Below, in pieces: positions 34,690 to 37,814 of a stretch of 64,000 bases of DNA. The stretch spans positions 352,001 through 416,000 of the forward strand of contig CAXXKT010000001.1 of assembly GCA_963662405.2 (NCBI GenBank), read 5' to 3'. Below the pieces are notes generated by a model. The model did no database searches, was not told the DNA's origin, and saw nothing but the letters and a program-made list of their open reading frames with translations. Origin of the DNA: Syntrophales bacterium. Lineage in GTDB: Bacteria; Desulfobacterota; Syntrophia; Syntrophales; UBA2210. Every line of letters starts with the position of its first letter. Position 1 is the stretch's first letter. The position numbers and the translations under genes were made by a program.

Positions 34690-35661
34690 ATGCTGAAATC
34701 CATACTGATCTCGGCTTTTATCTCAATAGCGATCTACTTCGGTATCGCCGCCGTCCTGATCCTGAGCGGCATCCCCGATCCGCCTGCGCAGGATGAAAGC
34801 AGCCTCCGATTCGAGGAACTGTTCATCGATTACGAAGGCCTGCCCGATCTGCACCGCTACGAGGCCAGAGACGGGGCGCAGTTATCGTACCGCCATTACC
34901 CTTCCGAATCGAACACGGTCCTGATCCTGTTGCACGGCGCGGGGTATCACAGTCGCTACCTGATGCCCCTGGCCCAATTCATCAGCTCCGAAGGCCTGGC
35001 GCATGTCTACACCCCCGATCTGCGCGGGCACGGACCGGCCCCCACGCGAAGGGGCGATATCGACTACATCGGGCAATACGAGGACGACATCGCCGACCTG
35101 ATTGCCGTGGTCCGGGATCGGCACCCCGATGCCGCACTGATCGTCGGTGGGCACTCCTCCGGCGGCGGGCTGACGATTCGCTTCGCGGGGAGTCGGTACG
35201 GGCGGCAGGCCGACGCCTATCTCCTCCTGACACCCTATCTCAAATACAACGCCCCCACCATGCGCCCCCAATCCGGGGGATGGGCGCAGCCCTTCACGAA
35301 ACGTATCATCGGTCTGGTGCTCCTCAATAATGTGGGAATCCGCTCGTTCAATCACCTGCCGGTCATTCGATTCAATACACCCGAAGAGGCAAGGGACGGG
35401 ACGGAGACCCTGTCGTACACCTACCGGCTCAATACGGCATATGCCCCGAAGAATTACAAAAAGGGACTCAAGGCCATTACACAACCCATCCTGGTCGTGG
35501 CCGGCACCGCCGACGAGGTGTCGTACGCCGATCAATTTGAACCCGTCATCTCACAATACACCGACGCGCAGGTGGAACTACTGGCCGGTGTCACGCACAT
35601 GGGGGTCGTGGTGGGAAGCGAAACCCGACCGGTGATAAAGAAATGGCTGGAAGAACGGTAA
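34690..35661 (+). CDS. alpha/beta hydrolase (lysophospholipase-like)
   Basis: LHG, DLRGHG, GHSSGG. Confidence 0.85.
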   Translation: MLKSILISAFISIAIYFGIAAVLILSGIPDPPAQDESSLRFEELFIDYEGLPDLHRYEARDGAQLSYRHYPSESNTVLILLHGAGYHSRYLMPLAQFISSEGLAHVYTPDLRGHGPAPTRRGDIDYIGQYEDDIADLIAVVRDRHPDAALIVGGHSSGGGLTIRFAGSRYGRQADAYLLLTPYLKYNAPTMRPQSGGWAQPFTKRIIGLVLLNNVGIRSFNHLPVIRFNTPEEARDGTETLSYTYRLNTAYAPKNYKKGLKAITQPILVVAGTADEVSYADQFEPVISQYTDAQVELLAGVTHMGVVVGSETRPVIKKWLEER

Positions 35662-35761
35662 AAAGAAAAAGTTCGTAACGGCTTGTAGTATCTTTAAATT
35701 GTGTACCAGACATTTTTTTGAAGCTTAATCAATGTGAAAGGAGGAATGATAAAAAGTCTTC

Positions 35762-35945
35762 ATGAGCTGTGAATTGGGATACACTGTTTGAAACTTTATA
35801 GTTTTGGGCAGCAAGGCTACTGTTCGACATGTTTACTGGTCTTCGAGACCGCAAAGGAGAATGAAGAGCTGTAGCCGCAACATTCAATGATCTTCGAGAT
35901 CGAATAGGAGATTGGGACCAATTCACCTGACAGGCGCTGTCCAAG
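35762..35945 (+). ncRNA. putative IS110 bridge RNA (ends approximate)
   Basis: Outer stem GTGAATTGG 35769-35777 / CCAATTCAC 35918-35926; two internal loops capped by TTCGA hairpins, carrying target- and donor-matching segments. Confidence 0.8.
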
Positions 35946-35962
35946 ATGTGAGGAGGCGTTCT

Positions 35963-37075
35963 ATGAAGATGAGTATCGGGGTTGACCTTCACAAGACGCA
36001 GTTTACCGTTTGTTGTTTGAGTGAAGATCGGAGTGTTCAGGAGTCGGGCATCTACCCGACGACTGATCGAGGTTACCGGGCATTTATCATGAAGGTGTCC
36101 AACTGGAATGAGGGCGGTTACGAGGTCACGGCAGCGGTGGAATCAACAGGGAACACCCGACACTTTCGCAACCGGTTTTTGAAGGCGGGGATTGAGGTCA
36201 AGATAGTGAACACCTTGAAATTCAAGGTTGTAAATGAGTCAGTAAAAAAGACTGACAAGCATGATTCCCGCACATTGGCTGAGTTTCTTGAGAAAGATAT
36301 GCTTCCCGAGTCCATTCTTTGTTCGCAGGAAAGCGAGGACATTCGAAGGCTTCTCAAGTCACGTTCTGTTCTGGTGAAAGCTTTGGTATCCTTGAAAAAC
36401 CAGATACACGGTTTATTGCTTGGATATGGGATAGAGAGTCGGCGGGGACAGCTGCAGAGCAAAAAAGAAAGGCAGCGAATCCTTGACGGTCTCGCGGACC
36501 ATAGGAGTTACGGAAACGCTGCCCGAGCGGTAAAACCGCTTCTTGGTACAATAGACCAAATTGCATCCGAGGTCAAAGGACTTGAGCGCGTATTATCTGA
36601 TCTTGTTTCTGAAGACGAGGATGTTGCTCTGTTGCAAACGATTCCTGGCGTTGGAATAATAACAGCAGCGACGATTCGGGCTTATACCGATGACATCAAC
36701 CGATATGAGAGCGCCAAGCAGTATGCTGCTCATGCCGGTTTGGTACCATGGGTTCAAAACTCCAACAAGACCATTCGCCATGGTCATATTACCAAGCGAG
36801 GCCCCGTGGAACTGAGGACGGCTTTTGTGCAAATGGTAATGGGGATGCTACGGCTTCGGAATAAAACCGATGGATATTGGCTTATGTACAAATACAAAGC
36901 CATGAAAGAGAACAAGGGAACCGGGAAGAGCGTAATAGCGACGGCGCGAAAGATGAGCACTATTGTATATGCCATCTTGAAGAAGGGGGAGCCGTTTGAT
37001 CCATCGAAAATGCTGCCAGACCCGAAATATGTAGAGATGAGTAAGGTTGCGAGGTGTTATGCTTTGGCCGTTTAA
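35963..37075 (+). CDS. IS110 DEDD recombinase/transposase
   Basis: GVDLHK (D), VESTG (E), KTDKHD (DD), TIPGVG, GLVP..QNS catalytic Ser region, GHITKRG; AGGAGG RBS. Confidence 0.95.
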   Translation: MKMSIGVDLHKTQFTVCCLSEDRSVQESGIYPTTDRGYRAFIMKVSNWNEGGYEVTAAVESTGNTRHFRNRFLKAGIEVKIVNTLKFKVVNESVKKTDKHDSRTLAEFLEKDMLPESILCSQESEDIRRLLKSRSVLVKALVSLKNQIHGLLLGYGIESRRGQLQSKKERQRILDGLADHRSYGNAARAVKPLLGTIDQIASEVKGLERVLSDLVSEDEDVALLQTIPGVGIITAATIRAYTDDINRYESAKQYAAHAGLVPWVQNSNKTIRHGHITKRGPVELRTAFVQMVMGMLRLRNKTDGYWLMYKYKAMKENKGTGKSVIATARKMSTIVYAILKKGEPFDPSKMLPDPKYVEMSKVARCYALAV

Positions 37076-37139
37076 ATTTTAACCATGGGCCTGTTTGACA
37101 GGCTCTCCATGAATTGACTTTTTATAGGAGGAGGTATTG

Positions 37140-37814
37140 ATGGAACTGAAAGAAGCTATCACGAAGCGGATCAGCGTGAGGGGCTACAGACCGGATCCCG
37201 TTTCCCGGGAGGTCCTGACCGAGATCATTGAGACATCCCTTCGCGCGCCGTCCGCGATGAACGTCCAGCCCTGGGGGATCACCGTTCTTGCCGGCGGACC
37301 TCTGGACCGGTTGCGCGACACGAATATGGAGCTGCTGAAATCGGGCGCGGTTCCCGTTTCGGATTTCGGGCATGCGAAACCGTACGAAGGGGTCTACAAG
37401 GAACGCCAACGCACGCTGGGATTCCAATTATACGGCCTCCTCGGCATTGAGCGGAATGACAAGGCAAAACGAATGGAGTGGACCATGAAGGGGTTTCGGG
37501 GGTTCGACGCACCGGCCATGGTCATCCTGTCGGCCGACAAGGGCCTCGATACCCGGCTCGCCGGTTCCGATATGGGCGGACTCATTCAGACCATCTGTCT
37601 GGTGGCCCTCGAATACGGCCTGGGCACCTGCATCAACGGACAGGGCATCTTCTTCCCCGACGCCGTCAGGACGGTTGCCGGTATTCCGGAATCGCACAAC
37701 ATCTATATCTGTATCGCCATCGGCTATCCCGACTGGGACCATCCGGCGAACAGGCTGGTGAGCGACCGGGAGTCCATTGAAACCGTCACGCGCTGGGTCG
37801 GATTCGATCAATAG
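37140..37814 (+). CDS. nitroreductase family protein
   Basis: RISVRGY, APSAMNVQPW, GLGTC, IAIGYP. Confidence 0.9.
   Translation: MELKEAITKRISVRGYRPDPVSREVLTEIIETSLRAPSAMNVQPWGITVLAGGPLDRLRDTNMELLKSGAVPVSDFGHAKPYEGVYKERQRTLGFQLYGLLGIERNDKAKRMEWTMKGFRGFDAPAMVILSADKGLDTRLAGSDMGGLIQTICLVALEYGLGTCINGQGIFFPDAVRTVAGIPESHNIYICIAIGYPDWDHPANRLVSDRESIETVTRWVGFDQ

Follow-up and report, generated by a model that had tools for sequence, protein, structure and literature searches.

Two groups of RNA-guided elements within the IS110 family of insertion sequences (IS) offer the closest described parallels to the locus reported here, a 1387-bp IS at positions 35744-37130 of a 64,000-nt stretch of Syntrophales bacterium DNA (assembly GCA_963662405.2, contig CAXXKT010000001.1, positions 352,001 to 416,000; this whole stretch is referred to as the window). 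The bridge-RNA recombinases of IS621 and other IS110 elements, as described in two reports (Durrant et al. 2024, PMC11208160; Hiraizumi et al. 2024, PMC11208158), have a DEDD and a Tnp domain and a non-coding region upstream of their gene. For IS621, the sections of PMC11208160 on the guide model further describe target and donor guide modules, a short shared core and no duplication beyond that core; the left target guide (LTG) and left donor guide (LDG) pair with the bottom strand, and hence correspond in sequence to the top strand, at the left target and at the right end of the element. In the IS1111-type seekRNA elements ISEc11, ISKpn4 and ISPa11, the corresponding sections of Siddiquee et al. 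(2024; PMC11187229) describe subterminal inverted repeats, an RNA in which the top-strand match precedes the bottom-strand match, and a promoter that forms from the abutted ends; an upstream non-coding region is reported there for only a few IS1111-type elements. A third precedent is IS900 of Mycobacterium avium subsp. paratuberculosis, also of the IS110 family, for which the part of PMC8141618 on insertion sites gives the target motif CATGNNNNNNTCTCCTT (CATGN6TCTCCTT) and states that genes are rarely disrupted.

The window element resembles the first two groups in all of these respects, although its junction promoter is a prediction. It differs from IS621 in that the guide order is reversed (the top-strand guide lies 5′ of the hairpin and the bottom-strand guide 3′), in that the left halves of target and donor share 5 nt rather than 2, in that a guide for the right half of the target is not detectable, and in that its target is a Shine-Dalgarno sequence (SD) rather than the repetitive extragenic palindromic (REP)-like repeats of IS621. 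Its non-coding region lies upstream of the transposase, i.e. the IS110-type arrangement, unlike the typical IS1111-type element. Taken together, the element appears to work in the manner of a bridge/seek-RNA recombinase whose guides are ordered as in IS1111-type elements, which targets a half-site and whose donor end carries an SD.

An earlier, first-pass annotation of the window had placed the element at 35731..37142, a span that covers the IS and also takes in a few flanking bases. The left junction (35737-35743, then 35744 onwards) reads caatgtgAAAGGAG/GAATGATAAAAAGTC and the right junction ...GAATTGACTTTTTATAGGAG/GAGGTATTGATG, with the IS ending at 37130 and the ATG of a nitroreductase gene (Pfam Nitroreductase) starting at 37140; the gene ahead of the IS encodes an alpha/beta hydrolase. 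AGGAG is present at both junctions with no other target duplication, so that the boundary is ambiguous by 5 nt (35744-37130 or 35739-37125, 1387 bp each). A DNA search of the own assembly returned nine copies at nine different loci with a displayed identity of 100%; eight are identical along all 1387 bp, and the copy on contig 2 is near-exact. The left flank is AAAGGAG at eight copies and TAAGGAG at one, while the right terminus of all nine is TATAGGAG, within a right end (...TTGACTTTTTATAGGAG) that is nearly invariant among relatives. Insertion is thus both site- and orientation-specific, with the same left motif in 9/9 copies and a short core at both junctions.

The only long open reading frame (ORF) of the IS encodes a transposase that matches PF01548 (68.4 bits, residues 5-155) and PF02371 (72.7 bits, residues 222-302), and scores 228.9 bits with NCBIfam NF033542 ('IS110 family RNA-guided transposase'; cut-off 140). 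Its similarity to the solved recombinases IS621 and ISCro4 is distant (E ~1e-18) and lies mainly in the C-terminal domain. In the ISCro4 alignment D8, the KTDxxD motif (D98, D101) and the serine of the GLxP....S segment line up, and E60 (AVESTG) was placed by eye in an unaligned gap; we take the DEDD residues D8, E60, D98 and D101 and the serine to be catalytic. The non-coding region comprises 219 nt before the transposase ATG, with only 55 nt following the stop codon.

The evidence that this upstream region encodes guides comes from comparison among relatives. Relatives of the transposase were collected at one genome per species (77 loci), and the left ends of 25 lineages (51-100% protein identity) were aligned with MAFFT; further copies from the same genome, five loci whose left terminus was unmatched by the pattern (L057, L063, L071, L075 and L089), the truncated L070 and L073, and Lentisphaeria-type loci were excluded. 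Two segments, the LTG and the LDG, each lie directly 3′ of a 5-bp hairpin (H1 and H2, respectively), and a third, the right donor guide (RDG), lies 5′ of H2. The LTG, CAAAGGAG, equals the left flank at position -7 in 19/23 lineages (shuffle mean 8.6; 0/10000 shuffles as high) and at -6 in 24/25 (shuffle mean 15.9; 1/10000 as high), but at -8 in only 7/22, which is not significant, so that the effective target guide is 7 nt long. The RDG forms 120/125 Watson-Crick pairs with the IS left end across the 25 lineages (shuffle mean 107.9; 0/10000), including compensatory changes in L041 (CAUAC with GTATG), L044 and L069 (CAUGC with GCATG), and L058 and L059 (CGUGC with GCACG). Within these guides AGGAG is kept in the LTG of 24/25 lineages (the exception, L069, has GAGAG) and in the LDG of 25/25. 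The sense of the LTG and LDG fits the published bottom-strand pairing model (guide-model sections of PMC11208160). The proposal of the first-pass annotation that an IS110 guide is programmed for the SD is thus borne out: the LTG has the sense of the top strand, and across the 25 lineages its variable positions change together with the left flank.

The position of the crossover is indicated by three targets that deviate inside AGGAG, i.e. L046 (T at -5), L069 (A at -4) and L093 (AAAAGAGA). In each case the deviant base stays at the left junction, and in L069 and L093 the right junction shows the IS's own AGGAG (the right flank of L046 is not among the sequences); from this we infer that strand exchange takes place at the 3′ end of AGGAG, within its final 2-3 nt. 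In every copy the right end ...TATAGGAG places GGAG as far from the start codon as it was before insertion, in agreement with the earlier claim that the donor end carries AGGAG and that the downstream gene keeps an RBS (ribosome-binding site) sequence. It is thus the element's end, rather than the target, that accounts for restoration of the RBS.

We assign a probability of about 0.8 to the reading that this is an RNA-guided (bridge RNA or seekRNA) IS110-family element belonging to a deep, multi-phylum clade whose bottom-strand guides are fixed on the SD core. Under such a scheme the 220-nt left end would encode a structured RNA, of which the LDG (AUAGGAG) and RDG (CAUUC) would hold the abutted ends of the excised element; the element would land co-oriented with the gene, between promoter and start codon, and the gene's own SD would be replaced, with its spacing unchanged, by one composed of ...TATAGG from the element and the shared AG. 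Recognition would be of a half-site, with 7 nt specified on the left, and intragenic AAAGGAG sites would also be targeted, insertions there presumably being mostly lost by selection.

The non-coding region folds into an RNA supported by covariation (Table 1). Over the 25 lineages pairing reaches 96% in P3, 97% in H1 and 100% in H2, with GC/AU or CG/UA switches in up to 12 sequences, and all three helices were found independently by RNAalifold. The initial models of P1, P2 and P5 were only 49-68% paired on the MAFFT alignment, in which the 5′ region is misaligned, and P1 was for this reason re-tested sequence by sequence; P2 has a competitor helix. Segment B can pair with segment A or with segment A′, which is located just before the transposase SD, and both helices covary. 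They are either mutually exclusive or form a pseudoknot with P1, and B could be a switch between a guide-RNA fold and an mRNA fold. An Rfam scan of 35500-37400 gave only a chance lncRNA match (E 0.14). The subterminal repeat at the left end matches the reverse complement of 37105-37125, and left and right repeats covary among relatives (by eye; e.g. CGTGAGC with GCTCACG).

Table 1. Features of the insertion sequence and its target (positions in the window).
Feature	Position	Strand	Evidence
Left target half AAAGGAG	35737..35743	+	Final 5 nt AGGAG common to IS right end; [A/T]AAGGAG left of 9/9 copies
Insertion sequence, 1387 bp when the shared AGGAG is assigned to the right end	35744..37130	+	8 exact and 1 near-exact copies
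Left subterminal inverted repeat ATAAAAAGTC..TTCATGAG; GATAAAA, predicted -10 of circle-junction promoter	35749..35766	+	G5-A11 invariant in 25 lineages
P1 5′ strand GUGAAUUGG, pairs with 35918-35926	35769..35777	+	Uninterrupted helix of at least 8 bp in 20/25 lineages, differing sequences
Segment B (GUUUUGGGCAG), pairs with segment A (35782-35794) or segment A′ (35937-35944)	35801..35811	+	Five B/A′ pairs show 2-8 sequences, compensatory changes
Target-binding domain: P3 (35815-35825 with 35866-35876) enclosing 5′ loop strand 35826-35837, H1 35837-35851 and target guide	35815..35876	+	Covariation; RNAalifold
Left target guide (LTG) CAAAGGAG, same sense as target top strand	35852..35859	+	Covaries with left flank
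Right donor guide (RDG) CAUUC, complementary to IS left end GAATG (35744-35748)	35881..35885	+	Covaries with left end
Hairpin H2	35888..35902	+	100% paired; GC/AU and CG/UA switches at two pairs in 10-12/25 lineages
Left donor guide (LDG) AAUAGGAG (DNA AATAGGAG), matches IS right end ATAGGAG	35903..35910	+	[A/G]AUAGGAG in 25/25 lineages
Transposase gene, 370 amino acids; own SD GAGGAGG at 35950-35956	35963..37075	+	PF01548, PF02371, NF033542
Right-end hairpin GCCTGT/ACAGGC; no T-run directly after	37088..37105	+	Conserved, covarying in relatives by eye; not called by terminator scan
Right end: subterminal inverted repeat, TTGACT (predicted -35 of junction promoter), terminal TATAGGAG supplying SD	37105..37130	+	Sequence; relatives
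Right target half: spacer GAGGTATTG and nitroreductase gene, ATG 37140	37131..37814	+	Sequence; Pfam; homologues in G020 and G005 with uninterrupted site

In the own genome, seven of the nine copies are followed, at 5-9 nt, by an ATG opening an ORF of 71-239 amino acids (nitroreductase, SIMPL/DUF541, a flagellar rod protein, DUF6680, an OmpA-like beta-barrel protein and two without a Pfam family), and at all seven the transposase is co-oriented with the downstream gene. Outside the IS copies this genome has 908 AAAGGAG sites, of which 254 (28%) are followed at 4-10 nt by the start codon of a frame of at least 60 codons, or 193 (21%) under a stricter test, compared with 8.5% and 3% of random positions by the two tests. 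The probability of finding at least 7/9 copies at RBS-like sites is 0.0003-0.008 for p between 0.2 and 0.33; the copies are thus enriched at real RBSs beyond what the motif alone would give. Among relatives, junctions were scored as preceding a gene when a start codon lay 3-11 nt after the right end and opened at least 50 codons or a frame open to the end of the locus. This was so, in addition to the 7/9 of the own genome, for 15/15 junctions in one Spirochaetia metagenome-assembled genome (MAG), 6/6 in Marispirochaeta and 17/22 single loci (those with enough flank among the 39 listed), all with a transposase identity of 52-91%. A subclade at 31-36% protein identity in Lentisphaeria, Victivallales and one Clostridia MAG, with the left junction AAGGAGA/TGGTATGATAAAT and the terminus TTTTATCATAGGAG, contributed a further 12/15, so that 57/67 of all scored junctions precede a start codon by this measure. 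Hosts include, by record titles, Desulfobacterales, Spirochaetia, Dehalococcoidales, Dysgonamonadaceae and Lentisphaeria, and AGGAG is kept in both guides across the whole clade and several phyla, down to a transposase identity of 31-36%.

Several observations weigh against guides adapted to RBSs. Two of the nine own copies lie at AAAGGAG sites that are not RBSs: L003 (G000:C1:2112892-2114278) splits an opposite-strand gene of the MTTB family (trimethylamine methyltransferase-like), whose halves align to profile positions 29-122 and 133-422 and share one frame after removal of the IS, and L009 lies between a 116-amino-acid ORF and a convergent Sir2-family gene. The element thus reads sequence, not function. 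The mapping of copies suggested by the first-pass annotation accordingly turned out as expected for the motif ([A/T]AAGGAG in 9/9) and for most of the start codons (7/9), and insertion at non-RBS sequences, which it had named as evidence to the contrary, was found at these two loci, a result that does not undo the claim of programming. Of the 67 scored junctions, 10 fail the start-codon test. Since only 7 nt are specified and no right-flank guide was found when the 6 variable nt 5′ of H1 were compared with the right flank and spacer (seven registers, with and without G-U pairs), a genome offers about 900 candidate sites, and selection may have contributed as much as targeting to the excess at RBSs. 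The permutation tests of the guides ignore relatedness among lineages, and AGGAG could be constant because the recombinase requires it mechanistically, and not as an adaptation. As regards the candidate right-target guide in those 6 nt, it was unsupported, its best register being equalled or exceeded in 162/3000 shuffles.

Some of these points would be expected if the element simply targeted a 7-mer that happens to resemble an SD and its position before genes came wholly from purifying selection, with no adaptation to RBSs, an account also in keeping with the finding that about three-quarters of AAAGGAG sites are not RBS-like. We consider this account unlikely, albeit with an appreciable chance of being correct, on three grounds. 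The two positions 5′ of AGGAG in the target guide vary in step with the target, while AGGAG itself is retained in 24/25 lineages and in the subclade of 31-36% identity; AGG and AG are likewise retained at the donor end, a feature that recombination by IS621 does not need, its donor being described as fully reprogrammable in the parts of PMC11208160 on reprogramming; and all insertions before genes are co-oriented with the gene.

A mechanically fixed AGGAG, i.e. an extended core or a recombinase contact common to target and donor in this subfamily whose likeness to an SD is a by-product, would also account for the recurrence of the same 5 nt, in every lineage, at the two junctions and in the two guides. 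L069, which has the LTG GUUGAGAG, a flank ending in TTTTAGAG and no start codon nearby, fits such a constraint. We nevertheless regard it as improbable: the insertions of L069, L046 and L093 at targets deviating inside AGGAG indicate that the full pentamer is not strictly required, and a by-product would leave the 57/67 junctions before start codons at SD-like spacing unexplained.

A broader form of targeting would have the bridge RNA read the start codon as well: an invariant CAU in the 5′ strand of the target loop (35828-35830) would pair with the ATG that lies about 6 nt beyond the SD, making the whole translation-initiation region the target. CAU is invariant in 24/25 lineages at a fixed distance from H1, and in the clade of at least 52% identity AGGAG and ATG are 5-7 nt apart at 41/45 scored junctions (6 nt in 25 of those). 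A spacing of 5-7 nt is, however, normal for an SD in any case, the spacers of the own copies range from 5 to 9 nt, and none of the registers examined shows covariation between the spacer and the 6 variable nt that separate CAU from H1. RNAalifold, moreover, pairs the C and A of CAU with the UG after the LTG in 24/25 lineages, a structural reason for its conservation, and reading of the start codon accordingly seems very unlikely to us.

In this respect IS900 offers an instructive comparison. The reverse complement of its motif, AAGGAGA-N6-CATG, consists of an SD and a start codon, so that both elements have an SD in their target; for the window element, the comparison of registers gave no sign that the ATG is read. 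In IS900 the motif lies on the strand opposite the transposase, so that the element is antisense to the gene. The window element, by contrast, has the orientation of the gene, and its strand exchange lies inside the SD, which is thereby rebuilt. Bull and colleagues reportedly described in 2000 that IS900 inserts between SD and ATG in antisense, lending host signals to its hed ORF, and IS901, IS902, IS1110 and IS116 are elements that we take to group with IS900. No RNA-guide explanation for IS900 was found in the literature searched, and none of the papers covered connects the SD with a bridge or seek RNA guide of this family, a search that did not extend to the natural target motifs in the supplements of Durrant 2024, which may list AGGAG targets. 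The present guides thus offer an RNA-based explanation for a long-known habit of some IS110-family elements, sitting at RBSs, and place this habit in a large and widespread clade. Recombination guided by one half of the site has a parallel in IS621, for which the half-match part of a preprint (bioRxiv 10.64898/2026.08.31.748434) indicates that a half-matching substrate can suffice; there it is a property of off-target events and excision, unlike here, where the left half alone is specified and half-site recognition would be the normal mode of target choice.

The consequences of insertion for the downstream gene depend on transcription. Abutting the right and left ends gives TTGACT, 17 nt and TAAAAA, both hexamers being within the most conserved parts of the ends, and a promoter is predicted to form across this joint in the circular form; the joint was not seen among the metagenomic contigs examined. 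On integration the -35 hexamer would be lost, and guide RNA and transposase would then be transcribed from the upstream host promoter, as co-orientation permits, with the host gene read through from the same promoter. Alternatively, the insertion could be polar, cutting the gene off from its promoter and silencing it, in which case the retained GGAG would be without consequence; 1.39 kb are indeed placed between promoter and gene, and no outward promoter was found in the right end. We hold this to be rather unlikely. The co-orientation of the transposase at 7/9 own copies, i.e. at every one preceding an ORF, together with the result of a terminator scan of the right end, in which no terminator-like site was called, argues for read-through rather than promoter cut-off. 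In addition, 43-nt solo right ends directly before an ATG in a congener (L103) and a 400-bp derivative before an ATG (G021) are consistent with an IS-borne SD in use. The copies with their junctions, the RNA helices, the two guide covariations and the placement before start codons are direct results of the sequence comparisons; expression of the RNA, read-through of transposase and host gene, and the junction promoter are all inferred from sequence features.

A more far-reaching proposal, which we advance tentatively and with somewhat less than even confidence, is that this ancient clade (at least five phyla) could be a parasite of translation-initiation regions, combining SD-fixed guides, half-site recognition and dependence on host promoters with an IS-borne SD that repays the gene. 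The IS-borne SD would then survive as a working RBS in solo right-end remnants and miniature derivatives. Because such guides must have mRNA sense, the guide RNA itself carries two SDs, AAAGGAG (within 35852-35862) and AUAGGAG (35903-35910), the first with an AUG 1 nt later; binding of the 16S anti-SD to the guide RNA is conceivable, and the two displayed SDs could tie activity to free 30S subunits.

Removal of the IS from the window copy gives caatgtgaaAGGAGGAggtattgATG, and an uninterrupted AAAGGAG followed by 9 nt and ATG is present in nitroreductase homologues of two related genomes (G020 and G005). A SIMPL homologue (G012) and a DUF6680 homologue (G007) likewise have AAAGGAG before their start, while a homologue in G028 is without it. 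An IS-free allele was found as a 119-nt contig of a marine-sediment metagenome (run X4, record 17), which aligns to 37126-37201 with four differences and reads ...CGACAA-AGGAG-GAGGTATTGATG, matching the guide CAAAGGAG at 8/8 positions. The empty site reconstructed in the first-pass annotation agrees with this allele in the SD and right half, but its left flank is probably not ancestral, since the left flank of the allele differs from that of the window and instead matches that of copy L007 (G000:C1:1516894-1518280) at 25/30 letters shown (by eye). The window copy, L001, and copy L007 are mutually inverted and lie 1.13 Mb apart, and together with the L007-type flank this suggests that recombination between the two copies later inverted the intervening segment and swapped the flanks. 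In a synteny test of this inversion, the 403-amino-acid ORF and 400-nt flanks upstream of L007 were not found beside the nitroreductase homologues in L011, L014 and L017-L019.

For bridge recombinase design the clade may provide natural examples of a guide for one half-site and of a donor end that makes insertion translationally scarless, and the two variable guide positions constitute a natural reprogramming series that is directly testable. For annotation, some genes in these phyla would be translated from an IS-derived SD.

Two variant arrangements of the guide region were observed. A further contig of run X4 follows the left end as far as the start of the target guide (35853) and then continues with an SD-like motif, a 7-nt spacer and an ATG opening a reading frame, so that the guide-encoding DNA may itself serve as a recombination site. 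In the left end of L071 the target guide segment occurs as a tandem duplicate (GACCGUGAAGGAG twice).

Derivatives of the element were also detected. A 108-bp miniature (L028:879-986, also in the left flanks of L029, L034, L035 and L038) carries the IS left terminus and a right-end-like ...TTCTTATAGGAG, with the full IS directly after it, and for this reason the left flank of most copies in that Spirochaetia MAG is TATAGGAG instead of the guide's TTTAGGAG. A derivative of about 400 bp with an internal deletion (L015:1503-1909, in G021; left end 92% identical) comprises the whole guide-RNA region, both ends and a few transposase codons; it sits at ATGAAAGGAG, and its AGGAG is followed by 7 nt and ATG. 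In the own genome, a substitution-only search found no solo IS ends beyond the nine copies; a 13-nt match to the IS right end (CTTTTTATAGGAG) at G000:C1:1903300-1903312, outside any copy and with about 0.1 expected by chance, could be an IS remnant, although of doubtful meaning. Solo right-end fragments of about 43 nt (hairpin and TTGACTTTTTATAGGAG) occur at two loci, L103 and L104, of G003, a genome of the same genus. At L103 the fragment is followed by GAAGTT and ATG, so that the SD of that gene is IS-derived, and the L104 form, absent from the assembled G000, recurs in contigs of runs X1 and X3. Finally, at L058 a 29-nt right-end fragment is duplicated before a gene.

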